In this document: piece after piece, positions 5,138 to 53,905 of the stretch
Layout of the letters: every line of letters begins with the position of its first letter
Numbering within the stretch: position 1 is the stretch's first letter
Assembly: GCA_964482135.1 (NCBI GenBank)
Contig: CAYZWF010000001.1
Location: 11,362 to 75,361 of the forward strand
Direction of reading: 5' to 3'
From: an uncultured Rhodospirillaceae bacterium
Lineage (GTDB): Bacteria; Pseudomonadota; Alphaproteobacteria; UBA11136
DNA: 64,000 bases
Made by a program: the position numbers and the translations under genes
Notes under the pieces: generated by a model
What the model was told of the DNA's origin: nothing
The model's input: only the letters and a program-made list of their open reading frames with translations
Databases searched by the model: none

Positions 5138-5213
<76 letters not shown>

Positions 5214-28200: not shown

Positions 28201-28240
28201 TAAGCTGAGGGGGCCGTAACGCCGTCCTCGCGCCTCGCTC

Positions 28241-34472: not shown

Positions 34473-35907
34473 GCCCACCGGTTTTCTTGAAATCGAACGT
34501 CAGGGATTGTCTTCCCTGCCGCCGGCCGAACGCATCTCCAATTACCAGGAGTTCACCCTTCCTCCGGAAGACGAAGCCCTTGCCGAACAGGCCGCGCGCT
34601 GCATGGATTGCGGCATTCCCTTCTGTCACCATGGCTGTCCGGTCAACAACATCATTCCCGACTGGAACGATCTTGTGTATCGGGGGGAATGGCGCCGCGC
34701 CCTGGAGGTGCTTCATTCCACCAATAATTTCCCCGAGTTCACGGGACGTATCTGCCCCGCGCCCTGTGAGGAATCCTGCACTCTCAACATCACCAGCCAG
34801 CCCGTGACCATCAAGAACGTAGAACGCAGCATCGCCGAGCATGGCTGGCGGGAAGGCTGGATCACGCCACAGCCGGCGCAGGATAAAACCGGAAAGACCG
34901 TCGCCGTGGTGGGCTCCGGCCCGGCGGGCCTGGCTTGCGCCCAGCAGCTCGCCCGTACCGGCCACGAGGTGACGGTGTTCGAGAAGAACGGTAATCCTGG
35001 CGGCCTCCTGCGCTATGGCATTCCTGACTTCAAGCTGGAAAAGCATATTGTGGAACGCCGCGTCGATCAGATGCGCGACGAGGGCGTCACCTTTCGCAAT
35101 AACTGTCATGTGGGGGTAGATGTGGCGGCGGCCGAGCTGATGGCGGATTTCGATGCCGTGGTGCTGGCCGGCGGCGCGGAGAAGCCGCGCGATCTGAAGG
35201 TTCCGGGCCGCGATCTGAGGGGTGTTCATTTCGCCATGCCCTTCCTTAGCCAGCAGAATCTCCGTAACGAGGGCAAGACCATTGATCAGGCGCAAGCCAT
35301 CAGCGCCGAGGGCAAGCATGTGGTAGTGATCGGTGGCGGCGACACCGGCTCCGACTGTATTGGTACTTCCAATCGCCAGGGGGCGCTCTCGGTGACGCAG
35401 CTTGAAATTCTCGAGCGTCCCCCGGAGATGGAAGATAAGGCGCTGACCTGGCCCAACTGGCCGTTGAAACTGCGCACTTCCTCTTCCCAGGAGGAAGGCT
35501 GCGAGAGGGACTGGAGTATCGCCACCAAGCGTTTCGAGGGGGAAGACGGTCGCGTTACCGGGATGGAAATTGCCCGCCTGGAATGGGAAACGGATAAGGA
35601 CGGGCGCATGACCATGAAAGAGGTGGAAGGCAGCAAAACCAGGCTCAAGGCCGATCTGGTTCTGCTCGCCATGGGATTCCTGAATCCCGTGGCCGAGGGG
35701 CTGTTGGATGATCTTGGTGTGGGGCTGGACGGTCGCGGCAACGTGGCCGCCGATACGGACAGCTACCGTACTTACCTCGACAAGGTTTTCACCGCCGGCG
35801 ACATGCGGCGCGGGCAATCGCTGGTGGTCTGGGCCATCCGCGAGGGCCGCCAATGCGCACGCTCGGTGGACGAATACCTGATGGGGCGCTCCGACCTGCC
35901 GCGCTAG
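34465..35907 (+). CDS. gltD: glutamate synthase small subunit
   Basis: [13 protein letters not shown]-terminus, two 4Fe-4S Cys clusters, and FAD/NADPH Rossmann motifs ([27 protein letters not shown]). Confidence 0.9.
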
Positions 35908-35986
35908 AAATTCCTGGCTCGCCGTAATCCCGCCGTACTAGAGTATTGATGACTTTCCCGTTTCAGTATTCCCCGCAAGGGAACGT

Positions 35987-37273
35987 ATGAGCCAGGCTTC
36001 TCCCCTTCGCCGCCACCAATCACCTGCTTCTCCGTCCCCGGGCGCGGCGTCCCCAAATCTGCGGGACTCATTCCTGCGGGAGGTGGCCGCGTGGCGGGTT
36101 TTTGGCGGTAAAACCCGGGAGTCCCGTCTCGGCCAGGTTCCCGTTTTCAGTAACGAGTTCTGGACTTCGCGCCAGCGTCACGCCGCCGCCCTTCACGAAG
36201 TTTCCTACCGCGCCTGTTTCAAGCCCCAGCTTCCGGCTTTTTTCATGGAACGCCTGAGCACGTCCGGGGATGTGGTCTACGACCCCTTCATGGGGCGCGG
36301 CACCACGGTGATCGAGGCCATGTTACGGGGGCGGGTCCCCATGGGGTGTGACGTCAATCCCCTGTGCCGCCTGTTGGCGGAACCGAGATTACGCCCGCCT
36401 CATGTGGCGCAGGTGGAAGAGCGGCTTGACGAGCTTGATCTGGACCGGGCGGTGGAGGTGGAGGACAACCTGCGCGTCTTTTATCATCCCGACACCCTGC
36501 GCCAGATTGCCAATCTTCGCGGCTATCTCCTGGGGCGCGAAGACCGGGGGGAGTTGGATGACGTGGATGGCTGGATTCGCATGGTGGCCACCAACCGGCT
36601 CACCGGCCATTCGGGCGGGTTTTTCTCGGTTTACACCATGCCGCCCAACCAGGCCGTTTCACTGGCGTCCCAGCGCAAGATCAACGCAAGAAGGGAGCAG
36701 AGCCCGGAATTTCGCCCGCTCAAACCGCTGATTCTCAAGAAGACCCGATCTCTGTTGCGTGGCCTTGAGATTCCAGAAGATGCAAAAGCCTGCCGGGAAC
36801 AGGCGGCGCTGTTCACTGGATCGGCTCAGGCGACGCCGGGAATTGCCGATGGCTCGGTGGCGCTGATCGTCACTTCGCCGCCTTTTCTCGACACCGTGGA
36901 CTACGGCAAGGACAATTGGCTGCGTTGCTGGTTCAACGGTATCGATGCCGCCGGGCTGGAAATCGCCGCCTTCCGGTCATTACAGGCATGGACGATGTTC
37001 ATGAAGTCGGCTTTCGCGGAATTTTCCAGAGTCCTCGCCCCCGGTGGATTCATGGCCTTCGAAGTGGGGGAAGTGCGGCGCGGCAAGGTGCGCCTGGAGG
37101 AGGCAGTCCTCGAAGCGGCGGCGGCTCTTCCCGCATCTCGCCGGCTCGACCCGGTCTGTGTCCTCATCAACGCCCAGGACTTTACCAAGACCTCCAATTG
37201 CTGGGGTGTTCACAACAATACGGGCGGCACCAACTCCAACCGTATCGTGGTCTTCGAGAAGCCAAGCCTTTAG
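35987..37273 (+). CDS. putative SAM-dependent DNA methyltransferase (N6-adenine/N4-cytosine type), orphan
   Basis: Motif I DVVYDPFMGRGTT (FxGxG) at about aa 95 and motif IV LIVTSPPFLD (SPPF) at about aa 290 give an alpha-like motif order. No restriction endonuclease gene lies adjacent. Confidence 0.6.
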   Translation: MSQASPLRRHQSPASPSPGAASPNLRDSFLREVAAWRVFGGKTRESRLGQVPVFSNEFWTSRQRHAAALHEVSYRACFKPQLPAFFMERLSTSGDVVYDPFMGRGTTVIEAMLRGRVPMGCDVNPLCRLLAEPRLRPPHVAQVEERLDELDLDRAVEVEDNLRVFYHPDTLRQIANLRGYLLGREDRGELDDVDGWIRMVATNRLTGHSGGFFSVYTMPPNQAVSLASQRKINARREQSPEFRPLKPLILKKTRSLLRGLEIPEDAKACREQAALFTGSAQATPGIADGSVALIVTSPPFLDTVDYGKDNWLRCWFNGIDAAGLEIAAFRSLQAWTMFMKSAFAEFSRVLAPGGFMAFEVGEVRRGKVRLEEAVLEAAAALPASRRLDPVCVLINAQDFTKTSNCWGVHNNTGGTNSNRIVVFEKPSL

Positions 37274-38208
37274 GCTGGGGGGCTGGCCCGATCTTGCGGT
37301 GATCCGTGCCCGCGCGCCCAACGGGATGCCAGGAAAGCGCCGCTGAGGTTGTGCCAGACGCTGAACAGGGCGCCGGGGAGCGCGGCCGCGGCTCCGAAAT
37401 ACTGGGTGGCAAGCGCCACCGCGAGGCCCGAGTTCTGCATCCCCACCTCGATGGCCATGGTGCGCCGGATACGCCGGTCCTGGATCAACAGCGCCGTCAG
37501 CCCATAGCCCGCACCCAGTCCCAGCAGGTTGTGCAACATCACCGCCGCCACCAGAGGCAGCGCCACACCCGCCAGCATTCCCGCGTTGGCGCCGACAATG
37601 ATGGCAATGATGACGACGATGGCGGCCACCGAAAGCAACGGGAAGACGGCCTTGATGCGGTCCAGCCGTTCGCCGCAAAAATGGTTGACCACCCCACCGA
37701 GAACCACCGGGACGATGATAATCTTGAGCACGCTCATCATCATGGCCACCACCGGCACCGGCACTTCGCGGCCGATATAGGCCCAACCCAGGAGCGGCGT
37801 GGCGAAGACGGCCAACAGGGTGGAGACGGCGGTAAGGGTGATGGATAGCGCCACGTCGCCGCGGGCGAGGTAACAGATCACATTGGACGCCGTGCCACCG
37901 GGGCAGCTTCCCACCAGAATGATGCCCGCGGCAAGCATGGCCGGAAGCCCCAGAATCTGGGCCAGAATCCAGCCCATAAGCGGCATCAAGAGGAATTGCA
38001 GTCCGACGCCAAGGGCCACCGTTTTCGGGGTTTTCAGGACGCGGGCGAAATCCCCCGCCGTCAGCCCCAGCCCCATGCCGAACATGACCACGCTGAGCAG
38101 GGGCACGATGGCCGGCTTTAGCGACGCCCATGAATCGGGCTGGACATAGGCCCAGAGCGAGAACAACACGGCCCATAGGGGAAAGAGGGAGGTCAGGCGG
38201 GAAATCAT
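37270..38208 (-). CDS. bile acid:sodium symporter (BASS) family transporter
   Basis: About 10-TM protein with the LFPLWAVLFSLWAY...GMGLGLTAGDF pattern of the BASS family. Confidence 0.7.
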   Translation of the reverse strand: MISRLTSLFPLWAVLFSLWAYVQPDSWASLKPAIVPLLSVVMFGMGLGLTAGDFARVLKTPKTVALGVGLQFLLMPLMGWILAQILGLPAMLAAGIILVGSCPGGTASNVICYLARGDVALSITLTAVSTLLAVFATPLLGWAYIGREVPVPVVAMMMSVLKIIIVPVVLGGVVNHFCGERLDRIKAVFPLLSVAAIVVIIAIIVGANAGMLAGVALPLVAAVMLHNLLGLGAGYGLTALLIQDRRIRRTMAIEVGMQNSGLAVALATQYFGAAAALPGALFSVWHNLSGAFLASRWARGHGSPQDRASPPA

Positions 38209-38354
38209 TGGGGAAGCAGATGGTCCATGACGCGTGGGGAATTAAAGTCAATTTTAGCTAAAGTTTTGAGCAACTTAGTCATATTTATTATTATTTTATT
38301 TACAAAACAGCCCGCATAATAAGTAGCGTATTTTCATATTAGCGGGTTTTTATC

Positions 38355-38966
38355 GTGGAGATTCTATACCCAGACGCCAAGAATAAATTTTCCCGTTTCA
38401 GGGAAGATTTGCAGCACATCGTCAATCAGCCGGGTGTCGAGGAGATGCGCCCTTGCCCCGGATGCGTAGAGCCCTGTGCCTGCTCCGGTTCCATCAGTTG
38501 TTCCTGTGGATGTTCCGCGGAATGCGACTCGGCGCCCCGGGTCATGTCCTCGGAGCCGGAGAATTTCCTTATTGAATCAGGCATCGTTCCGCTGGTCTAT
38601 GAGTTCTATTGCCTGCGCTCCTGCCATCCCTGCTGGTCTTGTGAAGGGCATAATGATTCCGACGGCAATATCTACCGCCTTCCCCAGGTCTGGTTTTTTA
38701 CCAGCTCGGTTATTTATCCCCGCCTCATCGACGAACATATCCACGCCCTGCACCACAAGGGAAAGCTGGGAACACCCTGGCATGTTTGCCTGACTTACGC
38801 GCCGAGCGAGAGCCCCTATTCGGCATTCGCACTCAAACCGGATCTGGCCATGAGCGTCAGACCACCGCTGGAAAGCCTCCAGAGGGATACCATGGCTATC
38901 GCCCATGGATTTTCAGACAGCATCCACGCCAAGGCGGAGGAATATCTTGCGGGAAGCCATTCTTGA
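38355..38966 (+). CDS. hypothetical Cys-rich protein
   Basis: 203 aa. It carries an N-proximal cluster PCPGCVEPCACSGSISCSCGCSAEC and further Cys/His motifs (CLRSCHPCWSCEGH). It is preceded by a strongly AT-rich promoter-like region at 38225-38350. Confidence 0.45.
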   Translation: MEILYPDAKNKFSRFREDLQHIVNQPGVEEMRPCPGCVEPCACSGSISCSCGCSAECDSAPRVMSSEPENFLIESGIVPLVYEFYCLRSCHPCWSCEGHNDSDGNIYRLPQVWFFTSSVIYPRLIDEHIHALHHKGKLGTPWHVCLTYAPSESPYSAFALKPDLAMSVRPPLESLQRDTMAIAHGFSDSIHAKAEEYLAGSHS

Positions 38967-39111
38967 AAAATCTGGCGCCGAAAGAGTGCGGGCGTTTGCT
39001 CCATTTTTTCTGGTGGAGGGGTTGATAGGGAGCCCTACGGACCCTTGCCCTTTGGCGCTGTTCGCATGAGCCAGCATAATGTGTCGGTGGTCCGTGAACC
39101 GGCGGAGAAAA

Positions 39112-39876
39112 ATGAATCATCCCCAGATTAAACAACAAGTGATTGATGCCCTGCTGCGCAATCCTGAGAAACCCGTCACGGGAGAAATAAAAGGGTGCCG
39201 TTTTGCGGCGCATATCGGTATCCCCAATTATTCCGAGAAGGTTCTCGCCCACTATCCCGAAGCCGCCTCACTGGGCCTCAGCGAAATCTGCCGCCGCACG
39301 GAGGTGCCGTATTTCCATTTCCAGCATTTCGGCCTTTTCTGTGTTTTCGAAAGCCCCGCTAAACTTCACTTATACGACGAGGAAAGAACACTCGAAGAAG
39401 ACGTGCGGGAAATGGTCCATAGTTTTGGGCCGGTTATCTTCCAGAATGCCTATCTTGACGCGGTGGGCGGCAAGGAGGACCAGCGGAATATCTTTTCGCA
39501 TCTGAATTTTCATTTTGACCGGGGATCAAACCAGCCCACCCAGTATTCCCTGTTCTCGCGGTCGCCCACCGATCCCGTCCAAAGCGCGCCGCGAAAATCC
39601 TCCACTTTATATATTTCCAACGTGGTGGCGCATCTGCAGTTTTGCCGGGAACATGGCCTCTCGCCTGAAAAAGAGCCGGGAAGGCCGCGCTATGACATTT
39701 TTCATAATGAAAAGATGAAAAAGATGATTGGGCAGGTGGCTCTGGAACATGCCTGGGACGCGCCGAAAAACACGGGCGAAGTAGCCATCATCCACAACCG
39801 CCCCCTCCTGCATGCCAGTTATTATCGGAAAAAGGGTGTGCGCGGCTATCCCATCGGCGTGCGTTATCTGAAGTAA
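39112..39876 (+). CDS. hypothetical protein, possibly an Fe(II)/2-oxoglutarate oxygenase-like fold (tentative)
   Basis: Co-oriented 146 nt downstream of the Cys-rich ORF. It contains NFHFDRG (H-x-D) and a distal IIHNRPLLHA...R motif, with spacing resembling the PhyH/TauD facial triad plus Arg. Confidence 0.35.
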   Translation: MNHPQIKQQVIDALLRNPEKPVTGEIKGCRFAAHIGIPNYSEKVLAHYPEAASLGLSEICRRTEVPYFHFQHFGLFCVFESPAKLHLYDEERTLEEDVREMVHSFGPVIFQNAYLDAVGGKEDQRNIFSHLNFHFDRGSNQPTQYSLFSRSPTDPVQSAPRKSSTLYISNVVAHLQFCREHGLSPEKEPGRPRYDIFHNEKMKKMIGQVALEHAWDAPKNTGEVAIIHNRPLLHASYYRKKGVRGYPIGVRYLK

Positions 39877-39893
39877 ACCGGAAAAATACTTGG

Positions 39894-40655
39894 TTAGGTT
39901 TTTTCGCGCATTTCCTTGGCGGTGACGCCTCCGGTGGTGCCGTCGGCGTAGGATGCGTAGCGGACGATAAAATAGTCGCGGGGGCGGGAGGTCGTCTTCA
40001 CTGATTCCCGGTCCCTCAGCGCGGTGATCCACGCGCAGAGGCGGGCGTATTGGGAGGGAATGACCACGTCACGGTAATGTTCCAGCGCCACGAAACGCTC
40101 AAAAAAAGGCGCATAACTGGCATCCACCAGGGAAAAGTTCTTTCCCATCCAGTAGGGGCCGGAACCAGGGGCGCCGGACAGCGCCTCCGTCTCAATGAAG
40201 CGGAGATGGTCCAGCATAAGGTTCCGGTATTCGTTTTGTTTGTCCGTATCTTGTTCCAGCAGCAGTTTGTAGAAAGTGACGGTGAAGCGGTTGTCGCAGA
40301 AGTCGATCCAGATTCGCGCCCTGGCGCGGTCTGCCGGGTCGCCCGGCATCAATGGCGGCTCGGGAAACACCTCGTCGAGATATTCGTTGATGATGGCGCT
40401 TTCATAGATGCATGTTTCACCGTGCCGCAGCACCGGCACCTTGCTATAGGGTGAAATCCGGAGGAACCAGTCAGGCTTGTTCTTGAGGTCAATTTCACTG
40501 AGGGTAAAATCCACCTCTTTTTCCAACAGCACGATACGGCTGCGCTGGGCAAAGGGGCAGACATCGGCGCTGATGATTTCCACCTCCGACTGGCTCCGGT
40601 CCGTGCCGGAATGGGTTTCGGGGGTGTCTTTATTCCGCTTCTTGCCGTCGGTCAT
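39894..40655 (-). CDS. glutathione S-transferase family protein (thioredoxin-like N-domain with CPFAQR active site)
   Basis: ISADVCPFAQRSRIVL...VPVLRHGETCIYESAIINEYLDE is an omega/glutaredoxin-like GST N-terminal domain. There is an alpha-helical C-domain. Confidence 0.65.
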   Translation of the reverse strand: MTDGKKRNKDTPETHSGTDRSQSEVEIISADVCPFAQRSRIVLLEKEVDFTLSEIDLKNKPDWFLRISPYSKVPVLRHGETCIYESAIINEYLDEVFPEPPLMPGDPADRARARIWIDFCDNRFTVTFYKLLLEQDTDKQNEYRNLMLDHLRFIETEALSGAPGSGPYWMGKNFSLVDASYAPFFERFVALEHYRDVVIPSQYARLCAWITALRDRESVKTTSRPRDYFIVRYASYADGTTGGVTAKEMREKT

Positions 40656-40740
40656 GGCGCACTACTCTCTTTAATTCCAGCCACGTGTTAGCATATATAC
40701 AGCTATCAAACATGATCCGGCAGAGGGGAAAGGCAAGATT

Positions 40741-41385
40741 ATGACGGAAAAAGAGCGCTTGATCGTGGGCATCAGCGGCGCGTCGGGTGTGGTTTACGGC
40801 ATCCGGCTGCTGGAGTTGTTGCGCGATTTGCCGGTGGAAACCCATCTTGTGATGACCCGCCCGGCCGAACTGGTTCTTGCCACCGAAAGCGATCTGGCGC
40901 CAAAGGACGTGCGCGACCTGGCCGATGTCGTCCACCCCATCGGCAATATGGGCGCGGTGATTTCAAGCGGATCATTCCGCACCAGGGGCATGGTGGTGGC
41001 TCCCTGTTCCATGAAGTCGTTGGCGGAAATCGCCACCGGCATGGGCTCGACCCTGTTGGCTCGCGCCGCCGATGTGACTCTGAAAGAACGCCGGAGGCTG
41101 GTGCTCATGGTGCGCGAAACCCCGCTGCATAGCGGCCATCTGCGCAACATGCTCAATGTGTCTGATATGGGTGCGGTAATTGCCCCGCCGGTGCCGGCGT
41201 TCTACGCGAAGCCGGAATCCCTGGACCAGATGGTGGACCACACGCTGGGCCGTACCCTCGACCTGTTTGGCCTGGAAAGCGGTACCGTGCGGAGATGGGG
41301 AGAAGAGGGGCCTGAAACGGGCCCCGATTTGGATCGGAATGCTGAGGCAGAGCCGGTTAGGCTGGGAAAAAAAACCGGCCTTTGA
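40741..41385 (+). CDS. ubiX: flavin prenyltransferase UbiX (Pad1 family)
   Basis: LIVGISGASGVVYGIRLLE...MVVAPCSMKSLAEIATG...LVLMVRETPLH, the canonical UbiX flavoprotein motifs. Confidence 0.85.
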   Translation: MTEKERLIVGISGASGVVYGIRLLELLRDLPVETHLVMTRPAELVLATESDLAPKDVRDLADVVHPIGNMGAVISSGSFRTRGMVVAPCSMKSLAEIATGMGSTLLARAADVTLKERRRLVLMVRETPLHSGHLRNMLNVSDMGAVIAPPVPAFYAKPESLDQMVDHTLGRTLDLFGLESGTVRRWGEEGPETGPDLDRNAEAEPVRLGKKTGL

Positions 41386-41476
41386 GAGACCGGGCGGTCA
41401 GATAGTTTATGGGGAAGCCCTCGCCAGACGGGGGGCTCTTCTTGAAGGAACCCCTCCGCCGCAAGGGAAACAGATT

Positions 41477-41572
41477 CTAGCCGATTACGCCGCCAACCCA
41501 GAGAATGGAGATCATTCCACCCGTCAGGCCGACGAGAAACGACAAGGCTCTTCTTGTGATCTCGGTTGCCAT
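41477..41572 (-). CDS. 31-aa hydrophobic micro-protein (MATEITRRALSFLVGLTGGMISILWVGGVIG)
   Basis: Perfect GGAGGACATC-ATG Shine-Dalgarno spacing and a single predicted TM helix. It is not in the ORF track because of its size. Confidence 0.4.
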   Translation of the reverse strand: MATEITRRALSFLVGLTGGMISILWVGGVIG

Positions 41573-41889
41573 GATGTCCTCCAGCTAATGTTTACGGCCC
41601 CATGATGGCCACATGATTACGGTGGCGCTATGACCGCCGTCACAGTGGAATCGGTAGAGGCCATCTTTTTTGAATAGGAAAGACGGGGATCGGAACAATT
41701 ATGTTGCAATGCAACAATAAATTTGATATTACCCCGGGAGTGACGCATTTCTAGGCCATGCGTCACAAAATAACGTTTTAGATCAGCAGAGTTTCCGGTC
41801 TTTGCGGTGCGGAAAACACAGGGGTGTTCGCCGCTTTTGTGTTTTCCGCACCGGCTTTGTGCCGGAACGGGGGGTTGGAGTAAGGTGAT

Positions 41890-42057
41890 ATGAGTATTCG
41901 AAAGCGGAAGAAGAACAGCAAGCCCCAAAGAGAGTACGAGACCAAGAAAAGGAAATGCCTTATGTGTCGGGACGAATTCACATCACGTCATCCCGGTGAG
42001 CGCATCTGCGCTTCCTGTAAGGGCACGGCAGCTTGGCGCGAAGGTCTGGCGCTCTAG
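41890..42057 (+). CDS. 55-aa zinc-ribbon-like small basic protein (MSIRKRKKNSKPQREYETKKRKCLMCRDEFTSRHPGERICASCKGTAAWREGLAL)
   Basis: ATG with an upstream GGAGTAAGGTGAT SD. It has a CxxC-(15)-CxxC arrangement after a Lys/Arg-rich N-terminus. It is missing from the ORF track (under 60 aa). Confidence 0.5.
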   Translation: MSIRKRKKNSKPQREYETKKRKCLMCRDEFTSRHPGERICASCKGTAAWREGLAL

Positions 42058-42099
42058 ATCAGAAATTCAGGAGTGATCTCTCCCCGTTGTGAAGGCATT

Positions 42100-42801
42100 C
42101 TATTCAAAGCCTTCCACGGGCAGAGGCAGGTCACTCTTCCAGGCTTCCAGCCGCTGTATATAGGGCGGCTCTCCATTATCCAGAACCCATGAATCAACGG
42201 CGAAACGTTTGCCGCTGACCGTTTCCTCGATCTGTGCGCCCCAGTGCGGTTCGAACAGACGGGGTGTCCGAAAAGCGGCATCGAGTACGCGATGCCATGC
42301 CAAGAGGCCCCGTTGTTCAAGGAGGATGAGAAAACGCGTGGTGTTCCGGGATTCATCCACGCAATCCATCTGCCCTTCGATATCGCCGTAATGGCGGGGG
42401 GGAATCAGCGATAACGAGGAGGTTCTGACCTGATTGTGTGGCTGGGATGAGGGCGCGAAGCTGTTGGGATTACGCCCCTTGTCACGATGAACGGATGTCT
42501 GTTTCCCGGCAATACGCTCAAACAGGGCGACGGCCTCCCGGATTTGTTCGCGCTCAATACGCGAGGTCTTGGCCGTGGGCTCGAACAGGCGCGTGATATC
42601 AAGAAGTTGTTCCCGCGAAAGTGTGACGGTGCTTTGCGCCTTGCAGTCCAAGTTGTGGCAGATGGTGATGGTGTGCGTGTTTGCAGCAGGGGGAACCCGA
42701 ACCTCTTCACGCGGTGTGACGCGACCGTTCGCCGATGGGCCAAGAAAAAAACTGGTAAACAGAATGAACGTCGCCAGGTGATAGGAAAGAAGCTTCATCA
42801 T
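42100..42801 (-). CDS. hypothetical secreted/lipoprotein, paralogue of 20210..20854
   Basis: Signal peptide MMKLLSYHLATFILFTSFFLG. It shares CxNLDC, DCVDESRNTT and FAVDSWVLDNG motifs with the 20210 ORF. Confidence 0.5.
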   Translation of the reverse strand: MMKLLSYHLATFILFTSFFLGPSANGRVTPREEVRVPPAANTHTITICHNLDCKAQSTVTLSREQLLDITRLFEPTAKTSRIEREQIREAVALFERIAGKQTSVHRDKGRNPNSFAPSSQPHNQVRTSSLSLIPPRHYGDIEGQMDCVDESRNTTRFLILLEQRGLLAWHRVLDAAFRTPRLFEPHWGAQIEETVSGKRFAVDSWVLDNGEPPYIQRLEAWKSDLPLPVEGFE

Positions 42802-42943
42802 GGACTGTTTCAAGACGCCTGTTGACAAATCTGGTAGAACAATCCGGGGCAAAGGAATCATAGCACTTCATTTTTTGTTAAGGAATCCCCTGCAAGGCTC
42901 CTTTTTCAGTCGGTCCTTATCCTGAGGTTCCTGCCGTTCACGG

Positions 42944-43306
42944 ATGAAGTGGGGCGGCAAAACGGGGGAAAGCGCTGTGGCGACGGAAATCTACATCTGT
43001 AAGGAAGGCCAAAGCCTTAAACAGGGGAAGATCGAATACGGCGAGATCGACTCTAAGGATGAAGCCCAGTCCGATGCTGTGGCGCGCTGTAAGCGGGACC
43101 GGAGCATCGCCAAAATCGCCTATTACAGCGTCAACGAAAACGGCGATTTCCGCATTTTCTTCACCTATAACAATCCCAACCCAGCCTCGGAAAAAAAGAC
43201 TCCGAAACCGGACGGAGAAGCCGCGCCCAAGAAAAAGAAGAAGGCAAAGCCCAAGAAGAAAAAGAAAAAATCCCTGCTGTCCCGGCTCCTTTCCCCATTC
43301 TCCTGA
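42944..43306 (+). CDS. hypothetical protein with poly-Lys C-terminal tail
   Basis: 120 aa. The C-terminal PKKKKKAKPKKKKKKSLLSRLL is encoded by an A-rich tract. Coding status is uncertain. Confidence 0.3.
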   Translation: MKWGGKTGESAVATEIYICKEGQSLKQGKIEYGEIDSKDEAQSDAVARCKRDRSIAKIAYYSVNENGDFRIFFTYNNPNPASEKKTPKPDGEAAPKKKKKAKPKKKKKKSLLSRLLSPFS

Positions 43307-43358
43307 GCGCCCCCCAGTGATTCTAAAGGACGCCCCGGCTCATCAGTCCTGAGCCGTT

Positions 43359-44498
43359 CTAGCCGCCAAGCGGCAATGTGTAGACGGGCTGGGTGCTCTG
43401 CACGTCGCCCGATTGCAGGGCGAAAAGATGATGGAGAAGGGAAAAGGTGGTTTTCGATGTCAGGTCGGAATCGGCGATATAAAACCAATGTCCCCGATAT
43501 TCCACGGATACGGCAGCACGGTCCGGCTGGGCGGCTTGGGAGCGCACCCGGAGCAGACCGCCCGTGACCTGATCCCAGTCAAAGACCTCGCCATCGGCGG
43601 TGCGGGTGACCGTGACCCTTCCCGCCTCGATATCTTCGGGCGGCACCTTCACACCCTGTGAGAGGTAATAGAGAACTCCCATGAGAGAGCGGGTCTGGAT
43701 GCCGATACGATCATGCCTGCCGGAAATATAGTTGGGAGTTACCACGTAAAAAGGTGCATCCGGTGAAAGCTCAAGGAGCTTCTGAAGCTCCCGGGTCTCG
43801 GTAGTGGTTTCTCCCTTCGCGGTAAGGCGCATGACGATGCGCGAGGAGCCCCGGTGTTCCACCGCCCCGGGGGAAGGATGTTCGAGCCTGATATTCAGGC
43901 CGTCTTTGACCTGGAGGTTTCGCATCAGATCAGTCAGGCGCTGGAATGTCTTGTATTCGGGTGCGGTGGCCGGCGTTGGCCCCGCCGCCCGCGGCGCATT
44001 CCTGATTTTATTGACCCGCTGTGCGCACATCTCGAACACACGTTCCACGCTCCACCCGGAATTATAAAGCAGCAGCAGGGTTTCCAAGGAAATAGGGGAC
44101 AGCAGCCGTTTTACGAACTGTTCCCCCTGAAGGGGTGAATAGGTGACGGTGGGGTTTTCCTCGTATTCTCCGCTGGGCCCGATCTCGAAGATGTTGGATT
44201 TGCCCCCACCATGGGTAAAGGCGCCGGCCAGCCCCGCGTTATAGGTGAACTGGGTGGCCACCGAACTGACCTCAAGGAAGAAGGGGGTGTCCCGGTATTT
44301 CAGGCGTACCAGATTAAGGAGCATCTGCTCCTCGCTGGTTTTCTGAATGGCTATATTATAGGGATTGCGATTGCCGTGAACCGTGTCCGGCCCGAAATAG
44401 GCGCATCCCGAAAGCAGGGAAACAACTGTCCCCAATAACATTCCGGTGTAAAACCGCCGTCGACTGCGATCCTTTTTTACCCGTACACCAATTTCCAT
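43359..44498 (-). CDS. hypothetical lipoprotein (about 380 aa)
   Basis: Start taken at MEIGVRVKK, followed by a TM/signal segment and an LSGC lipobox. There is no recognisable catalytic motif. The ORF-track 474-aa version is a 5' extension. Confidence 0.5.
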   Translation of the reverse strand: MEIGVRVKKDRSRRRFYTGMLLGTVVSLLSGCAYFGPDTVHGNRNPYNIAIQKTSEEQMLLNLVRLKYRDTPFFLEVSSVATQFTYNAGLAGAFTHGGGKSNIFEIGPSGEYEENPTVTYSPLQGEQFVKRLLSPISLETLLLLYNSGWSVERVFEMCAQRVNKIRNAPRAAGPTPATAPEYKTFQRLTDLMRNLQVKDGLNIRLEHPSPGAVEHRGSSRIVMRLTAKGETTTETRELQKLLELSPDAPFYVVTPNYISGRHDRIGIQTRSLMGVLYYLSQGVKVPPEDIEAGRVTVTRTADGEVFDWDQVTGGLLRVRSQAAQPDRAAVSVEYRGHWFYIADSDLTSKTTFSLLHHLFALQSGDVQSTQPVYTLPLGG

Positions 44499-44663
44499 CG
44501 CCTGCCTTTGCCCCTTTTGCCTGTCCCGAATAGAAGCCGCAAAGCCCCTCAAAGGCAAGGGGGCAGGGAAGGAATACAGACTGGAGCTTTTCCAGGTTGA
44601 CAGTGAATAGGGGCGTTCTATAGTCCCTGTTCTCAGTGTGGTTGCATAAGGAAAATCAACCCC

Positions 44664-44990
44664 ATGTCTCCCAGCCGCTATCTGGATAGGCCCAAGCGCA
44701 CTTACGAGGAAGCCGTGCGCGCAAAAGACACGTGCAACAGGGTTCGTGATGCGCGTGGTGACGGCTCCGATGAGACGGGACACGAAAGTCCCTTCTCGCG
44801 CCTCGGGGGGGCATGGCTGTCGGGTGTCGTGCTGGTGTTTGTTCTTGCAGCCCTTGCCGGATTTATTGTCCTGCCCTCTTTTATTCCCGAGGAAACCGTT
44901 ACCGCCGAGGGGATCACCACCGAGGAAATTCAGCGGTTACAGACCATCGCGCCGGCGGCGGGTCCTGGCGCTCTTCCCGATCCCAATTGA
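44664..44990 (+). CDS. hypothetical small membrane protein (108 aa)
   Basis: Single TM segment (AWLSGVVLVFVLAALAGFIVL). Its TGA stop overlaps the proposed TTG start of the downstream DUF547 gene (TTGA), suggesting translational coupling. Confidence 0.4.
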   Translation: MSPSRYLDRPKRTYEEAVRAKDTCNRVRDARGDGSDETGHESPFSRLGGAWLSGVVLVFVLAALAGFIVLPSFIPEETVTAEGITTEEIQRLQTIAPAAGPGALPDPN

Positions 44991-45880
44991 TCCCACGGGA
45001 ATTCCCCGGTCGGTGGCAGACCGGCCTCCCGGCCCTTACTTCTCTGTTTCTGTGGTTTTCCGTTTTTTTCACCGGCGTTGCCTGGGCGGCGTCCGGAGTG
45101 GAACTGTGGGAGCGTTGGGCACAATCCGACCCTGAATCCTCGGCTTCCATCACCTATGACAACTGGAACCGGTTTCTTGAAAAATACATTGTCGAATCCC
45201 CCGGCGGCATCACTCTGGTTCGTTACGGGGCCGTTACCGGCGAGGACCAGGAAAACCTTGGAAGTGAGATACACAGACTCTCGCGGGTTCCCATCAGCCG
45301 TTTTAACCGTGATCAGCAACGCGCCTTCTGGATTAACCTCTATAATGCGCTGACGGTTAAACTGATCCTGGACCACGCTCCGGTGGACAGTATCCGCGAC
45401 ATCGATATTTCACCGGGCTGGTTTTCCGACGGCCCCTGGGGGCGGAAACTGGTGACGGTGGAAGACGAGAAACTTTCCCTTGATGACATTGAACACCGTA
45501 TCCTGCGCCCCATTTGGCGCGATCCGCGCCTTCACTACGCCTTGAACTGTGCCGCGCGGGGCTGTCCCAATCTGGCGGCCATGGCCTATACGGCGGCCAA
45601 TAGCGAGTCGCTTCTGGACGCGGGTGCCCGGGCCTATGTGAACCATGACCGGGGCACCGCGTTCGTTGACGGCGCTCTGGTGGTGTCCAGTATTTATGTT
45701 TGGTACATGCCGGACTTCGGTGGTTCGGAGGGCTCTGTGATCGCCCATCTGGGGCGTTATGCCGAACCCGGACTCGCGGCAAAACTGGCAGAAGTGAGGC
45801 GTATCTACGACGACGTTTATGACTGGCGGCTTAATGATGCCGGGGGCGACGGGACAATGATGCCTCCGGTCTCTCAATGA
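44987..45880 (+). CDS. DUF547 domain secreted protein
   Basis: ITYDNWNRFLEKY...AFWINLYNALTVKLILDH...HYALNCAARGCPNL is the DUF547 pattern. There is no in-frame ATG before the predicted signal peptide (...LFLWFSVFFTGVAWA/AS), so a TTG start at 44987 is proposed. Confidence 0.55.
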   Translation: MIPREFPGRWQTGLPALTSLFLWFSVFFTGVAWAASGVELWERWAQSDPESSASITYDNWNRFLEKYIVESPGGITLVRYGAVTGEDQENLGSEIHRLSRVPISRFNRDQQRAFWINLYNALTVKLILDHAPVDSIRDIDISPGWFSDGPWGRKLVTVEDEKLSLDDIEHRILRPIWRDPRLHYALNCAARGCPNLAAMAYTAANSESLLDAGARAYVNHDRGTAFVDGALVVSSIYVWYMPDFGGSEGSVIAHLGRYAEPGLAAKLAEVRRIYDDVYDWRLNDAGGDGTMMPPVSQ

Positions 45881-45941
45881 TTTTCCTTTCTATTTCCTCC
45901 CCGCCGGAAATAGTCTTTGATGAATTAGAGGATATTGATCC

Positions 45942-46382
45942 ATGGTTCACAGAAGGCTTATTGAACCAGCGCTGGCCCGCCTCGAAGGTGAGCGCGTTAA
46001 ATATTTCTATGATCTGGTTCACGAACTGGAAAACGATCCCCGGCTCGGCGCGTCTCCAAACACGGTGTATCTGGTTCTCAAGGAAACTCTGGAGTTGCTT
46101 CCCACCAACCTGCCGCATGACGAATTGGCCAATTTCCTGTTCGATTTTGTCGCCACCAATGAAGCCCGTCTCAACCGGGTAATCTTCAGCCGGAATTTCG
46201 CCCACGATCCGTCCTGTATCCGCAGCGTTACCAATGATTTTGTTCGTCAGGTGGTGGATGTGGTGATGACCTATTACATGGAGGGGAAGATAGAGAGCCA
46301 TGAACAGAGGGTTCACCGCATTTCATGGCCGTACGATAAAAATGACTTCCCTTATCACGACGATGAAGATGACGAAGACTGA
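45942..46382 (+). CDS. hypothetical protein with acidic C-terminal tail (HDDEDDED)
   Basis: 146 aa with protein-like composition, in an AT-richer segment. No known motif was recognised. Confidence 0.4.
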   Translation: MVHRRLIEPALARLEGERVKYFYDLVHELENDPRLGASPNTVYLVLKETLELLPTNLPHDELANFLFDFVATNEARLNRVIFSRNFAHDPSCIRSVTNDFVRQVVDVVMTYYMEGKIESHEQRVHRISWPYDKNDFPYHDDEDDED

Positions 46383-46479
46383 AGAAGGCGCGGGAACCGA
46401 TGCTGGGGAGGAGAAGGCCTAAAGAAATACCTTGTCGCCTTCGGCTGGAATCCGATTTTCAAGGAGATTCCGCCTCTAA

Positions 46480-47259
46480 TCAGGCCGACAGTTTGGCGGT
46501 CTGCGCCTCATCGAACCATTGTTTGAGCAGGTCCACTGTCACGTATTGGGCGCCGTGGGCGTCTCCCGACACCAACTCAAAAGGCTTATCCGGTTCGCCA
46601 AGGTCGCTCAGAACGGCTGTGGCGCCGGTGAAATCCTCGCCTTCGGTATAGCTGCTGACGGTGACGATGGCGGCCATCCCGGCGGCAAGACTGGCCTGTA
46701 ATCCCTTGGGCGAATCCTCGATGGCCAGACAGGCGGTCGCGGGCAGGCCAAATTCCTGCAAGGCCCAGCTGTAGATATCTGGAGCCGGCTTCTTGGCGGG
46801 AACCTTGTTGCCGTCGCCGATAACCTCGAACCAGGAAAGGACATCGTTACCCAGCGCCTTGTCGAAAAGCGCGCGCAGGTTCTCTTCCGTCGTCGATGTC
46901 ACCAAAGCAAGGCGCAGGCCACATTCCCGCGCTTCCGAGAGCAAGCGGATGACCCCTGGCCGCACCCCCACGGCCTTATCTTCCACCAGTTCCGCATAGG
47001 CTTGGCTTTTGGCCTTATGCATGGCCTCAATGAAACTATAGAGATCGGGGCGCGAGGCCATTTCGGGATGGGTGCGGTCGATATAGTGGCGAATTCGCTC
47101 GCGTCCGCCGCTGACTCCCAACAGGTCCCGATAGATGGCCTGGTCCCAGTGCCAAGCTACCCCGAATTCCTTGAAGGCGGTATTGAACGCTTCGCGATGG
47201 GCATCCTCGCTTTCCGCGATGGTGCCATCCACATCCAACATCAGAGCCGCTAATTCCAT
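46480..47259 (-). CDS. HAD-superfamily hydrolase, CbbY-like
   Basis: LMLDVDGTIAESEDAHREAFN (DxDG[T] motif I), a motif II Ser/Thr, and motif III/IV K...DS. Confidence 0.75.
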   Translation of the reverse strand: MELAALMLDVDGTIAESEDAHREAFNTAFKEFGVAWHWDQAIYRDLLGVSGGRERIRHYIDRTHPEMASRPDLYSFIEAMHKAKSQAYAELVEDKAVGVRPGVIRLLSEARECGLRLALVTSTTEENLRALFDKALGNDVLSWFEVIGDGNKVPAKKPAPDIYSWALQEFGLPATACLAIEDSPKGLQASLAAGMAAIVTVSSYTEGEDFTGATAVLSDLGEPDKPFELVSGDAHGAQYVTVDLLKQWFDEAQTAKLSA

Positions 47260-47427
47260 TTTTTTACATTCCGTGCCTGTAACGTCGGGCCTGTTCGGCC
47301 ACTTTTTTCCGGGAGAATCACGTCCGCGCAGAACCCATGATTCTCATATTGGGGGGCAGATTGTAACGGAAAGGGGCAACCAGTGGAAAGGATGTGTGCC
47401 CGCGAGACGGCGTTGCCACAAGAAAAG

Positions 47428-48897
47428 CTATTTAGCCATTTTTGCTATGGTGGAGGTGGTGCTGTGACCGGTTTCAATCTCGGCAAGAAGGACACGCCCC
47501 CCGTATCCTTTGACCACATCACCACCCACCACTTCATCGAGACGATAATCGGCTCCCTTGACCAGAACATCGGGACGGATGGCCTCGATCATGCGGATCG
47601 GCGTATCTTCCGAGAATACCACCACCAGATCAACCGAGGCCAAAGACGCCAGCACCGTCTCGCGGGCCGATTCGCCCTGTACCGGACGGCTTTTTCCTTT
47701 CAGCCGGGCGGTGGACGAATCACTGTTAAGTCCCACAATAAGACGGTCACAAGCGGCCTTCGCCTGATCGAGAAGGGAAATATGGCCGGGATGGAGAAGG
47801 TCGAAGCAGCCATTGGTGAATCCCACTTTTAAATCCTTGCTGCGCCAAAGATTAACCTGCTCCAGGGCTTCGGCCAGCGAAATGATCTTGGCTTCTCCCG
47901 ACAACAGGTCCTGATGACGCAGCGCGCCCAGGAGCTCGGAGGCATGTACCACCGCTGTTCCGGCCTTGCCCACGGAAATCCCGGCGGCTGCATTGGCAAG
48001 CCGCGCCGCATCGGAAAGGTCCACCCCCACCGCCACAGCCGCGGCCAACGTTGCCACGGCGGTATCGCCCGCGCCCGAAACATCAAAGACCTCTCTCGCT
48101 TCTCCGGCGAAATGATCGGGTGTCTTTTTGGCGCTGCCGCGCACCAGAGTCATGCCGTCGGCGCTGCGGGTTACAAGAACCGCATCTACACCACAGGAAG
48201 CGATAATGGTACACGCGGCGGAGGCTATTTCTTCATCACTTGAAACGGGCATACGGGTGGCGGCGGCCAGTTCCCGCAGGTTGGGCGTGATAAGGCTGGC
48301 GCCGCGGTAACGGGTGAAGTTATCGCCTTTGGGATCAACGATTACGGGCCGACCGGCCTTCGTGGCGGCGGCGATAAGGTCCTCGACTCCGCTTGGCGTC
48401 AGTACGCCCTTGCCATAGTCGGACAGTATGACAACGCCACAGGACTTCATGGCCTCCTTCGCCAGACCCAGAACTTCCTGCTGTTTTTCCGGAGAAAGGG
48501 GAAGAACGGTTTCGCGGTCGGCGCGCATCATTTGCTGATGGGCGGCCACGAAACGGGTCTTGATGGATGTGGATCGGTCCTTATCCAAAAGAAGATGCGG
48601 CGTGATGGCGGGCGCGCTCCGGAAAAGCTCTTTTACATCCGCAGCGGCCTCGTCGTCGCCGATGGCGGCGATAAATTCAGTGGAGGCTCCCAAAGCAGAA
48701 AGATTGCGGGCCACATTGCCGGCGCCGCCCAGCATTTTGGTTTCTCCGCTGATGCGAAAGATGGGTATGGGCGCTTCGGGGGAAATACGTTCCACATCAC
48801 CCGCAACGAAGCAATCAAGCATAAGATCGCCAATGCAAAGCACTTTGGCGTTGCCCAACAGGTCAATGGCGGCAACGGGATCGGGAATGTTAGACAT
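47428..48897 (-). CDS. hldE: bifunctional D-beta-D-heptose 7-phosphate kinase / D-beta-D-heptose 1-phosphate adenylyltransferase
   Basis: N-terminal PfkB ribokinase-like domain (VLCIGDLMLDCF, GGAGNVA) plus a C-terminal cytidylyltransferase-like domain (GFTNGCFDLLHPGHISLL). Confidence 0.85.
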   Translation of the reverse strand: MSNIPDPVAAIDLLGNAKVLCIGDLMLDCFVAGDVERISPEAPIPIFRISGETKMLGGAGNVARNLSALGASTEFIAAIGDDEAAADVKELFRSAPAITPHLLLDKDRSTSIKTRFVAAHQQMMRADRETVLPLSPEKQQEVLGLAKEAMKSCGVVILSDYGKGVLTPSGVEDLIAAATKAGRPVIVDPKGDNFTRYRGASLITPNLRELAAATRMPVSSDEEIASAACTIIASCGVDAVLVTRSADGMTLVRGSAKKTPDHFAGEAREVFDVSGAGDTAVATLAAAVAVGVDLSDAARLANAAAGISVGKAGTAVVHASELLGALRHQDLLSGEAKIISLAEALEQVNLWRSKDLKVGFTNGCFDLLHPGHISLLDQAKAACDRLIVGLNSDSSTARLKGKSRPVQGESARETVLASLASVDLVVVFSEDTPIRMIEAIRPDVLVKGADYRLDEVVGGDVVKGYGGRVLLAEIETGHSTTSTIAKMAK

Positions 48898-49586: not shown

Positions 49587-50831
49587 TTAACCCTGATTCG
49601 GGCAAATCGCCAGCAAAGCCGCCTCGAAACGGGAGAGAAGGGTCTCCCGGTCCCATTCGGTTTCGGCCCTGTGGCGGGCGTTTTCACCCAGACGCTGACG
49701 CTCCGCCGCATCATCGGCAAGATGGCAGATGGCTGCCGCCATTGCCTCACTGTCTTCGGGGGGGGCGATCATGCCACAGTCGGCAACCTCCCGCGCCAAG
49801 GCCGTCTCTTCCCGCGCTCCGGCCACTACGGGCCGTCCGCTGGCAAGCATGGCACCCAGTTTCGAGGGCATGACCAGATCCGCCGCGTCGCTGCGCTGGG
49901 GCAGGAGATGTATCTGGGCGAGATTGAGAAGATCGTTAAAGGTCTCTGCCGGCTGCAGGGGCAGCAGTCTCAGGTTGCGCACAGTTTTGGCAAGAACGCC
50001 AAGCCGTGCCGCAGCCGCGCCGTCGCCGCATAAGACCACGGCTATATCAGAACGTTGTTCCAGTTTGCGGGCGGTTTCGACCAGAGTTTCCATCCCCTGT
50101 TTTTCCCCCAGATTCCCGGAATACAGGACCACCAGCGTATCCTTTTTAAGGCCCAACTCGGCGCGCAGGGCTTCCATGCGCGGGCTCGGGGTTTGCAGGG
50201 GGCGGATGGTTTCAAGATCGGTCCAGTTGGGGAACAGCACCGTATCGCTGTCGGACACGCCCTTGGCGGCAAGGCGCTCGCGCATGCGTGGCGTTATGGT
50301 GGAAACCCGGTCGAAACGCCGCAACAGCATTTCCTCTGTGGACAAGGCGAAACTGCGGGCAAAATCCGAATCCAGAAGCCCCAGCCCGAAGGCGGCCTCC
50401 ACCTCGAAATCCTGGATATGCAGCCAGGCCTTGGCGCCACTCAGTTTCGCCACCAGCCATCCTCCCGGCGCACAGAACAACGCTGGCGCCACCGTCAGCA
50501 CAATGTCGGGCCGGAATGCTCCTCCCGCCCATGCCAGGGGCGGCAGACTGGTAAGGGCGAAGCTCATCAGATGCAGGATGCGGTTGATCCCGGATCGCCG
50601 CCGCGGCACCCACAAAGGACAGCGCGTCACCGTCACGCCGTCTTCCATCCCATGGGCGTATGTGGCGGCGCTGAATCCTTCTCCCACCTTCCAGGCGGGA
50701 TAGTAGGGGGGCGCGGTGATAACGCGGACCTCATGTCCCCGCGCCACAAGCCACGGCGCCATTTCGCCGGAATATCTTCCAATTCCGATAGGCTCGGGTG
50801 CGTAGTTGAGGCCGTAAATGAGAAGTCTCAC
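49587..50831 (-). CDS. family-1/4 glycosyltransferase (WcaI-like)
   Basis: GTG start at 50831 with a GGAGAGGGA SD gives MRLLIYGLNYAPEPIGIGRY... (GT4 N-domain). C-terminal EX7E-like region. The 627-aa ORF-track version runs into the upstream flippase gene. Confidence 0.7.
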   Translation of the reverse strand: MRLLIYGLNYAPEPIGIGRYSGEMAPWLVARGHEVRVITAPPYYPAWKVGEGFSAATYAHGMEDGVTVTRCPLWVPRRRSGINRILHLMSFALTSLPPLAWAGGAFRPDIVLTVAPALFCAPGGWLVAKLSGAKAWLHIQDFEVEAAFGLGLLDSDFARSFALSTEEMLLRRFDRVSTITPRMRERLAAKGVSDSDTVLFPNWTDLETIRPLQTPSPRMEALRAELGLKKDTLVVLYSGNLGEKQGMETLVETARKLEQRSDIAVVLCGDGAAAARLGVLAKTVRNLRLLPLQPAETFNDLLNLAQIHLLPQRSDAADLVMPSKLGAMLASGRPVVAGAREETALAREVADCGMIAPPEDSEAMAAAICHLADDAAERQRLGENARHRAETEWDRETLLSRFEAALLAICPNQG

Positions 50832-51166
50832 GATTCCCTCTCCGCGCGGAGAACCAGACAATCCCCATGTCCCTGACGGTTTTTCAGCCACAACAGGGGA
50901 AACAGTATGAAACGCCATACCGCCATAAGCCCCACCACCAGTAAAGGATTGCGCAAGGCGTTGGTGGGCTCGCCGGGGTGGGCGAAATGGTCGGCGATGG
51001 TGGATTGCGCCACCCACAGGGCGGGCGTTTCCTGATGGCAGGTAAAGGTACGGAACCCGGTATCTGCGAGAAGTTTTTTCAACAGGGACGGTGAGAAATG
51101 AACGGATAGACCAGCACCCAGTCGAGGGTGGTTTCCTCCCCGGCCTCGGATGTATATTTCTCGCCC

Positions 51167-52768: not shown

Positions 52769-52810
52769 CCCTTGAGTGCGGCCCCGGTCAGGCGCGATCC
52801 CGCTCCGCGC

Positions 52811-53776: not shown

Positions 53777-53905
53777 CCGTCCCCAGGCTCCACTCAAGAA
53801 TTTTTCACGCCTGCGTAAGGTTTACACATACCAGCGCGCCGTAGAGACTATCACCGATGGCGGGCATTGATAAACCGCCGCCATTCCCGTCGCGACCGCG
53901 TCCTG

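Follow-up and report, generated by a model that had tools for sequence, protein, structure and literature searches.

Flexible, or hypervariable, regions between conserved core genes have been described for populations of free-living marine bacteria; the other obvious standard of comparison is the integrase-mediated island at a tRNA gene. Here, we analyzed a stretch of 64,000 nucleotides (hereafter, the window) from an uncultured Rhodospirillaceae bacterium (contig CAYZWF010000001.1, positions 11,362 to 75,361), in which a first-pass annotation had marked positions 38225-46400 as one compositionally distinct, strain-specific accessory island of about 8 kb, lying between a BASS transporter gene and the cbbY-hldE-gmhA block. 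We find that this tract is probably a long-resident flexible patchwork of conserved and dispensable genes, varying mainly by deletion and cassette swap, and not a foreign island. The evidence comes from a comparison of five lineages, i.e., the window and the relatives L099, L103, L084, and L085, all of which have gltD on the left and cbbY-hldE-gmhA on the right, with differing content between them. The tract resembles the marine flexible regions in its small modules without mobility genes and in the restriction-modification cassette and lipopolysaccharide (LPS) glycosyltransferase genes that vary nearby. It differs from them in that a large share of its variation goes back to deletions with gene stubs left behind, and in being fixed in the species, i.e., less dynamic than classic strain-level islands. 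With an integrase-mediated island it shares a guanine-plus-cytosine (GC) content lower than that of the surroundings and many hypothetical genes, but it has no integrase, no bordering tRNA, and no direct repeats, is noncontiguous, contains the housekeeping gene ubiX, and has host-like dinucleotides.

Gene calls were taken from public contigs of identical sequence and verified with family libraries. They gave the following inventory of the tract and its borders (aa, amino acids):

35987-37273, plus strand: orphan Type II DNA methyltransferase (MTase), 428 aa (PADLOC MTase_II PDLC03325, E 7e-162, residues 28-426)
37270-38208, minus strand: BASS/PanS-like transporter (Pfam SBF, E 2.7e-42; NCBIfam PanS, 336 bits, under the 400-bit cut-off)
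38355-38966, plus strand: Cys-rich protein, 203 aa, GTG start (family alignment)
39112-39876, plus strand: p254, putative Fe(II)/2-oxoglutarate dioxygenase, TauD/TfdA-like, 254 aa (rare family)
39894-40655, minus strand: Cys-type glutathione transferase (GST) (Pfam GST_N_3, 68.9 bits; GST_C_2, 33.1 bits)
40741-41385, plus strand: UbiX flavin prenyltransferase (NCBIfam NF004685, TIGR00421; Pfam Flavoprotein)
41890-42057, plus strand: micro55, a 55-aa CxxC...CxxC micro-protein (conserved in all five lineages; PHROG 13335, E 5e-6)
42100-42801, minus strand: secreted protein, 233 aa, with a signal peptide and no lipobox (dN/dS 0.21-0.24; the ratio of nonsynonymous to synonymous substitution rates)
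42944-43306, plus strand: poly-Lys-tailed protein, 120 aa, antisense between two genes that share a strand
43359-44498, minus strand: lipoprotein, 379 aa, lipobox LLSGC (dN/dS 0.14-0.17)
44596-46457, plus strand: three-gene cassette mem108-DUF547-acid146 (extent from breakpoints against relatives)
44664-44990, plus strand: mem108, small membrane protein (gene call; paired with DUF547)
44987-45880, plus strand: periplasmic DUF547 protein (Pfam PF04784, 92.9 bits against a gathering score of 27)
45942-46382, plus strand: acid146, acidic-tailed orphan (4 clusters in 5.8e9 proteins)
46419-46448, minus strand: stub of a response-regulator/metallo-beta-lactamase (RR-MBL) gene, comprising the stop codon and the last ~9 codons (intact gene in L099)
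46480-47259, minus strand: CbbY-like HAD phosphatase, first gene of the cbbY-hldE-gmhA block (Pfam HAD_2)

This inventory bears out the first-pass description of a run in which the strand alternates often and most genes have no known function, and its gene list largely held (Cys-rich protein, oxygenase-like protein, GST, UbiX, micro-protein, poly-Lys open reading frame (ORF), membrane protein/DUF547 pair, and acidic-tailed protein). The exception was its two lipoproteins: only the gene at 43359-44498 encodes a lipobox (LLSGC), and that at 42100-42801 specifies a plain signal peptide instead. Elsewhere, the window is an ordinary alphaproteobacterial chromosome, with rlmN, argG, folD, the ccm operon, aconitase, gltBD, and one-carbon (C1) genes linked to tetrahydromethanopterin (H4MPT).

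The tract turned out to belong to the species and not, as had been proposed, to a strain. We found the UbiX protein with the same neighbors on 24 contigs from independent ENA, JGI, and Logan assemblies. Near-identical copies reach 99.99% (L001 and L002) and 99.97% (L102) identity to the window. Two sister lineages have 95-97% nucleotide identity in ubiX, cbbY, hldE, and gmhA. Window positions 38234-46448 were collinear at 91.7% nucleotide identity in L099-L101, and the same gene order was kept in L103-L106, MTase and BASS included. In the metagenome-assembled genome (MAG) "ISR48" at NCBI (Alphaproteobacteria bacterium), the genes for the lipoprotein, mem108, DUF547, and acidic protein carry consecutive locus tags. 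Between the window and the sister lineages, dN/dS was 0.08-0.43 for the tract genes and ~0 for micro55, which argues for real, constrained genes that are shared at the species level and are not strain-specific. The tract genes are thus under purifying selection, and within the window's species the whole arrangement is fixed and collinear. The synonymous divergence (dS) from L099 and L103 over 34465-46382 was uneven: gltD and the Cys-rich gene had 0.35-0.54, p254 had 0.27-0.30, and GST, ubiX, DUF547, and acid146 had 0.085-0.09; such a spread (from 0.09 up to 0.54 in the Cys-rich gene) within a species points to homologous recombination between lineages, with the tract as a recombination mosaic.

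More distant relatives, found by a metagenome scan with CbbY, were L083/L084 (86-88% nucleotide identity; CbbY 95% identical in amino acids) and L085 (80-83%; CbbY 89%). The gene order in L084 is gltBD / ubiX-micro55-233aa / 379aa / cbbY-hldE-gmhA and that in L085 is gltBD-MTase / ubiX-micro55 / cbbY-hldE-gmhA, where slashes denote breaks relative to the window. Breakpoints determined by blastn delimit the following segments that are present in the window only:

36025-40565, versus L084: MTase, BASS, Cys-rich, p254, GST
42850-43360 (511 bp), versus L084: poly-Lys gene (29-35 bp instead in L083 and L084)
44596-46457, versus L084: mem108-DUF547-acid146
49681-52778, versus L084: glycosyltransferase and flippase-like gene
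37264-40618, versus L085: BASS to GST
42118-46455, versus L085: 233-aa gene to acid146

In all relatives, ubiX and micro55 stood at this same position, and four of the five lineages also had the 233-aa protein and the 379-aa protein there. Within the tract, the differences from L084 and L085 fell at four separate breakpoints, and since the ubiX/micro55 backbone lies among them, the 8 kb that had been described as one island is not one unit. Nor did the BASS transporter hold up as its left flank: the gene is present in the window, L102, and L103-L105 and absent from L099, L084, and L085, and so is itself variable among lineages.

The junctions indicate how the absences arose. In L084, the MTase is reduced to its start and codons 1-13, with the same N-terminus as in the full-length MTases of L085 (80% amino acid identity) and L103 (93%), which are orthologous from residue 1. 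The GST is reduced to codons 1-30 with a 1-nt frameshift; this stub includes the beta-1 strand, and residues 24-30 lie within the fold, since solved GSTs align from query residue 21-28. Both L084 stubs are 5' ends that read inwards, as expected after a deletion between convergent genes but not after an insertion. In L085, GST codons 1-12 remain with the start ATG changed to ACG; the 233-aa gene is cut down to codons 1-15, and both of its start codons are mutated (ATGATG to ACGACG). At L084 13120-13330 (window 36024/40566), where 4.5 kb has been deleted, the junction holds a 17-bp filler identical to L084 gltD, flanked by 12- and 17-bp matches that extend it to a 56-bp gltD-like patch (48/56 identity), and both deletion ends resemble gltD. 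This suggests a template-switch (templated) repair from the neighboring gltD. We also considered that the 4.5 kb between gltD and ubiX had been inserted into the gltD-like 56-bp patch, and rejected this because its ends are the inward-reading 5' ends of MTase and GST, which deletion alone would leave.

At the right end of the tract, the RR-MBL gene between acid146 and cbbY gives a similar picture. L099 has it intact (408 aa), L103 has it broken into two parts, and the window lost it by a 1269-bp deletion that spared the stop codon and the last ~9 codons (46419-46448). In L084, the spacer between cbbY and the 379-aa gene contains a 33-bp internal piece of RR-MBL (29/33 identical; 0 of 500 shuffles scored as high), and the left end of the deletion that reaches this remnant shares a 9-bp motif, TTTT(T)CCAG, with its target. 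Overall, the junctions show short microhomologies, and one has templated filler. Given the stubs, at least the MTase, GST, 233-aa, and RR-MBL genes were ancestral, and their absences are small deletions.

At the left end, the MTase is a variable module: L085 and L103 have it, L084 has kept 13 codons as a stub, and in L099 it is replaced. There, positions 1028-3224 take the place of window 35912-38233 and encode a different MTase (364 aa, 55% identical) together with an MjaV-family restriction endonuclease, at a GC of 0.45; the last 16 codons of the window-type MTase persist at L099 3141-3188. As judged from this replacement, the locus next to gltD is a restriction-modification swap site. No endonuclease gene adjoins the MTase in the window, where BASS abuts it, so the window itself carries no complete Type II restriction-modification system at this site.

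Taken together, the tract is bounded by a conserved block on either side, on the left by gltBD and on the right by the heptose operon gmhA-hldE-cbbY. Its backbone consists of ubiX and micro55, shared by all lineages, and of the 233-aa and 379-aa proteins, shared by most, and its dispensable modules are the orphan MTase, BASS, the Cys-rich/TauD-like pair with GST, the poly-Lys gene, mem108-DUF547-acid146, and RR-MBL, the last already lost from the window. Variation would arise mainly through small, microhomology-mediated deletions of weakly constrained genes, with cassette replacement at the restriction-modification site as a second source.

The base composition, which had first drawn attention to the tract, is indeed lower and patchy in GC. 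In 1-kb windows, GC was 0.533-0.597 over 37501-48500, against 0.604-0.642 in the preceding 7 kb and 0.60-0.63 after it, and inside the tract it differed between ubiX (0.616) and acid146 (0.506). At the 4-kb scale, no part of the window had a lower GC than positions 38001-47000 (0.551-0.567) or lay farther from the rest in tetranucleotide composition (distance 9.0-10.6, with 4.9-8.5 elsewhere). GC at third codon positions (GC3) was 0.59-0.74 in the tract genes and 0.70-0.83 in most flanking genes, with a native-like 0.82 in BASS. The claim of compositional distinctness thus stood for sliding GC and tetranucleotides, but not for the GC-normalized dinucleotide signature, for which delta* was 33-69 inside versus 19-71 elsewhere in the window. 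The supposed compositional end at 46400 shifted as well: the low-GC stretch continued through cbbY (GC 0.597) and hldE (GC 0.585, GC3 0.63), both core genes, to ~48.5 kb. Further low-GC patches occurred at 9-10 kb, 22-24 kb, and 28.5-30 kb, and the most extreme one (GC 0.46) at 54-55.5 kb. The orthologous tract was likewise low in GC in the relatives, with 0.553 in L099, 0.557 in L103, and 0.566 in L084, so low GC travels with these genes and does not signal a recent arrival. We infer that the lower GC is a consequence of the gene types residing here.

Signs of mobility were looked for and not found. No integrase or transposase Pfam domain occurred in ~50 window ORFs scanned (all but one of the ORFs of at least 150 aa judged coding). 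No tRNA or tmRNA lies at a tract border, the only tRNAs of the window being at 5138-5213 and 28124-28200. The search for flanking direct repeats and terminal inverted repeats returned only short, scattered, chance-like matches, none of which bracketed 38.2-46.4 kb or any module. Run on the tract proteins, PADLOC reported the MTase only, and PHROGs reported only DNA methyltransferase families, a micro55 match, and a marginal Cys-rich match (E 0.0097), the latter two to families of unknown function. A contiguous block with a clean empty site in close relatives was not seen either: gene stubs stand at the junctions, and backbone genes lie inside.

A single horizontally acquired, strain-specific island of ~8 kb inserted between BASS and cbbY is, against this evidence, very improbable. 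It would account for the compositional extremes of the window at 38-47 kb, both in GC (lowest) and in tetranucleotide distance (largest), and for the many unannotated genes, most of which were absent near hldE in 80 representatives from GTDB. It conflicts with the collinear conservation in the sister lineages, the ubiX and micro55 backbone inside, the four breakpoints versus L084 and L085, the deletion stubs in relatives, and the variable BASS flank, as well as with the lack of an integrase, a bordering tRNA, flanking repeats, or a distinct dinucleotide signature. What remains of the "accessory island" is that the tract contains dispensable genes that differ between related species; that it is one unit and strain-specific did not survive the comparison, no sign of mobility was seen, and many of the absences in relatives are losses, as the stubs attest. 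A chimeric join in the metagenome assembly has next to no probability. The organism is uncultured and known only from metagenome assemblies, which leaves room for such an artifact in principle, but ENA, JGI, and Logan data yielded this sequence in independent assemblies, and diverged yet collinear copies exist in other lineages.

The alternative that deserves more weight, though we still consider it unlikely, is that several small segments (the Cys-rich/TauD-like pair, BASS, poly-Lys, and the DUF547 cassette) were independently inserted by horizontal transfer into the species ancestor on a GST-ubiX backbone, with only some of the differences being losses in relatives. These four modules occur only in the species-level lineages, and most of their genes have a GC3 of 0.59-0.69; acid146 is an orphan; the DUF547 cassette is self-contained, antisense to its neighbors, and begins exactly at a near-consensus promoter; and a clearly foreign restriction-modification cassette (GC 0.45) did enter the locus in L099. 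However, no insertion scars or repeats were found, BASS has its native-like GC3 of 0.82, and no donor is identifiable, the nearest relatives of p254 outside the species being at most 55% identical plus one at 81%, and those of acid146 outside the species-level group 41-44% except one at 88% on a 1.6-kb contig. Moreover, the L084 deletion has its left end at the left border of the cassette and runs into the RR-MBL remnant, so that one deletion explains the absence.

Several points do weigh against a long-resident patchwork shaped mainly by loss. The stubs prove polarity for four genes only (MTase, GST, 233-aa, and RR-MBL). For the ancestors of L084 and L085, the content that once separated the two stubs (MTase and GST) is invisible. 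The window's species could therefore have gained the Cys-rich/p254 pair, BASS, the poly-Lys gene, and the DUF547 cassette after the split. At the 4-kb scale, the tract is the most deviant part of the window in GC and tetranucleotides, which fits an old foreign origin of some modules. The dS values of 0.09-0.54 are a further caution, as recombination between lineages may blur a simple tree-based reading. Lastly, the comparison rests on five lineages from metagenome contigs, and no GTDB species representative exceeds 64% HldE identity. Among the 185,579 representatives, this best match came from Rhodospirillaceae/Alphaproteobacteria MAGs, whose loci share only gmhA-hldE and occasionally cbbY, ubiX, or the 379-aa lipoprotein (as a 53% identical copy near hldE in the GTDB MAG L004). 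The GTDB representatives are thus too distant to serve as a test of the island borders.

On balance, a long-resident patchwork of conserved and dispensable genes remains the reading that we prefer, and its individual genes give it substance. The UbiX assignment is clear, with 255 bits versus 188 for NF004685, 240 versus 109 for TIGR00421, and E 4e-42 for Pfam Flavoprotein. Its orthologs across the relatives are 87-97% identical in nucleotides, in the same position in all five lineages. In two other Rhodospirillaceae MAGs, ubiX (65-66% amino acid identity) directly follows hldE (L077 11834-12391; L035 7083-7664), so the ubiX-hldE neighborhood is older than this genus. The GST, transcribed divergently from ubiX, carries a 23-aa N-terminal extension and the active-site motif C-P-F-A (reading ...ADVCPFAQR...) of a Cys-type, omega/DHAR/SspA-like enzyme. 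Its best PDB relatives are tau/omega GSTs, DHAR, and SspA, in alignments that begin at query residues 21-28.

The most conserved gene of the tract is micro55, with amino acid identities of 100% in L099 and L103, 95% in L084, and 87% in L085. The ~200 noncoding nucleotides upstream of it (41690-41889) are also conserved in all five lineages, with a mean column identity of 84% that includes the relative at 80% average nucleotide identity. They hold a perfect inverted repeat of 16 bp (41805-41820 / 41838-41853) as well as the palindrome TTGCAATGCAA, and could be a regulatory element or a small RNA; an Rfam scan over 35-50 kb found nothing near any threshold, this segment included.

The mem108-DUF547-acid146 cassette (dN/dS 0.13-0.43) opens with the best sigma-70-like site that a promoter scan returned for the region, TTGACA-16-TATAGT at 44597-44624 (11/12). 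It is no conserved unit elsewhere, as an acid146 homolog at 41% identity does not adjoin a DUF547 gene. The poly-Lys protein is found only in the window's species, with 89-97% amino acid identity and a dN/dS of 0.08-0.15 in the sister lineages. PDB sequence searches with the DUF547 protein and the 379-aa lipoprotein gave nothing useful, and the literature on DUF547 consisted of plant papers only, with no bacterial function.

The item with some novelty is the conserved pair of Cys-rich and TauD-like genes, recurrently placed by ubiX, ubiD, and ubiA. The Cys-rich family comprises 256 representative clusters of ~205 aa; since their alignments begin at residue ~13 of the 203-aa ORF, the GTG start at 38355 is confirmed. 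The protein combines an N-terminal Cys cluster with a C-terminal alpha/beta domain, the cluster and the motif W94-S95-C96-E97-G98-H99 being near-invariant, and its structure model is very confident, with a predicted local distance difference test (pLDDT) score of 95.8. The model possibly has a TYW3-like fold; this is a lead only, since there was no Pfam TYW3 match and a Foldseek search of the model against PDB gave no significant match. The family profile against PDB likewise returned only spurious EGF-like Cys matches. Wybutosine itself is archaeal and eukaryotic. The fold of the TYW3/Taw3 class is an SHS2 + RAGNYA alpha/beta fold, in which an invariant Asp and His bind S-adenosylmethionine. 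TYW3/Taw3 proteins form a class of S-adenosylmethionine-dependent methyltransferases whose signature motif reads (S/T)xSSCxGR (PMC5311493). Of that motif, the Cys-rich family shares only S-C-x-G, and compared with TYW3/Taw3 the protein is bacterial, has His in place of the essential Arg and Trp in place of a motif Ser, and carries the extra N-terminal Cys cluster.

The family of its partner p254 is rare, with 29 clusters among 5.8e9 proteins, and lacks a Pfam model; p254 is most likely a divergent, putative 2-oxoglutarate (2OG) dioxygenase. It has the double-stranded beta-helix fold by which the TauD/TfdA family is recognized. D136, H234, and R251 are invariant and H134 nearly so, which makes them candidates for the H-x-D...H triad and the 2OG-binding Arg. 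In contrast to TauD/TfdA dioxygenases, p254 scores below the gathering threshold of Pfam PF02668 (13.5 bits versus 27), with 9 of the 29 family members giving sub-threshold matches (best E 0.0013). Its model is poor around H-x-D (residues 118-142, pLDDT <50), and it always adjoins the Cys-rich partner gene, which is no TauD/TfdA feature. A PDB sequence search with p254 gave nothing useful, and tblastn of both proteins against 72,556 plasmids gave no match.

The two genes are neighbors in all six contexts examined; the context of one further Cys-rich homolog (P0094), on a 3.8-kb contig, was uninformative. In the window's species, the pair lies one gene away from ubiX, and in L107 and L111 the order is ubiA - Cys-rich (minus strand) - ubiD - p254, which likens these sites to ubiX/ubiD/ubiA neighborhoods. 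Unlike such neighborhoods, the three other contexts, L109, L113, and L115, have no ubi gene, so that the ubi association comes from two independent lineage groups out of five. We know of no ubiquinone enzyme in either family, and the literature held no paper linking TauD with UbiD/UbiX. From their proximity in 6/6 contexts, the nearby ubiX, and the interleaving with ubiA and ubiD, we tentatively propose, while regarding it as doubtful, that the two genes make up a previously undescribed enzyme module that acts within the UbiA/UbiD-UbiX part of prenylated-quinone biosynthesis or next to it. Such a module could consist of a hydroxylase and a TYW3-like methyl- or group-transferase with a metal-binding Cys cluster, and could serve, for example, in an alternative ring hydroxylation/methylation step or in precursor supply.

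Other parts of the window also vary. Directly after tRNA-Arg(CCT) at 28124-28200, a low-GC patch (28124-29613; GC 0.50-0.56) holds two overlapping 259-aa ORFs without a Pfam or NCBIfam match. Positions 28619-29516 within it are absent from L085, which has ~100 bp there instead; as a tRNA-linked islet, this patch is a better-looking candidate than the tract at 38-46 kb. The LPS/O-antigen side (49681-55500) is variable too: L084 and L085 lack the GT4 glycosyltransferase gene and the Wzx-like flippase gene at 49681-52778, with only the last 24 GT4 codons kept, and collinearity with L084 stops at 54120. The ORF at 54322-55194 (GC 0.448, GC3 0.41, no family match) is the most foreign-looking gene of the window. 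The H4MPT-linked C1 genes at 57971-61352 include formylmethanofuran:H4MPT formyltransferase (Ftr) and GXGXG and amidohydrolase subunits, and suggest formaldehyde oxidation or methylotrophy-type metabolism.

The region thus represents ordinary genome flexibility, a known kind of feature, in an uncultured marine-type alphaproteobacterium. Its variation really extends over 35.9-46.5 kb and falls into at least five pieces, and composition alone was misleading in this case. The points of interest are the Cys-rich/TauD-like pair, i.e., two families without a Pfam model that lie by ubiX, ubiD, and ubiA, and the restriction-modification swap site by gltD. More generally, a low-GC run of hypothetical genes in one window may be an old resident tract, of which the relatives carry reduced derivatives.

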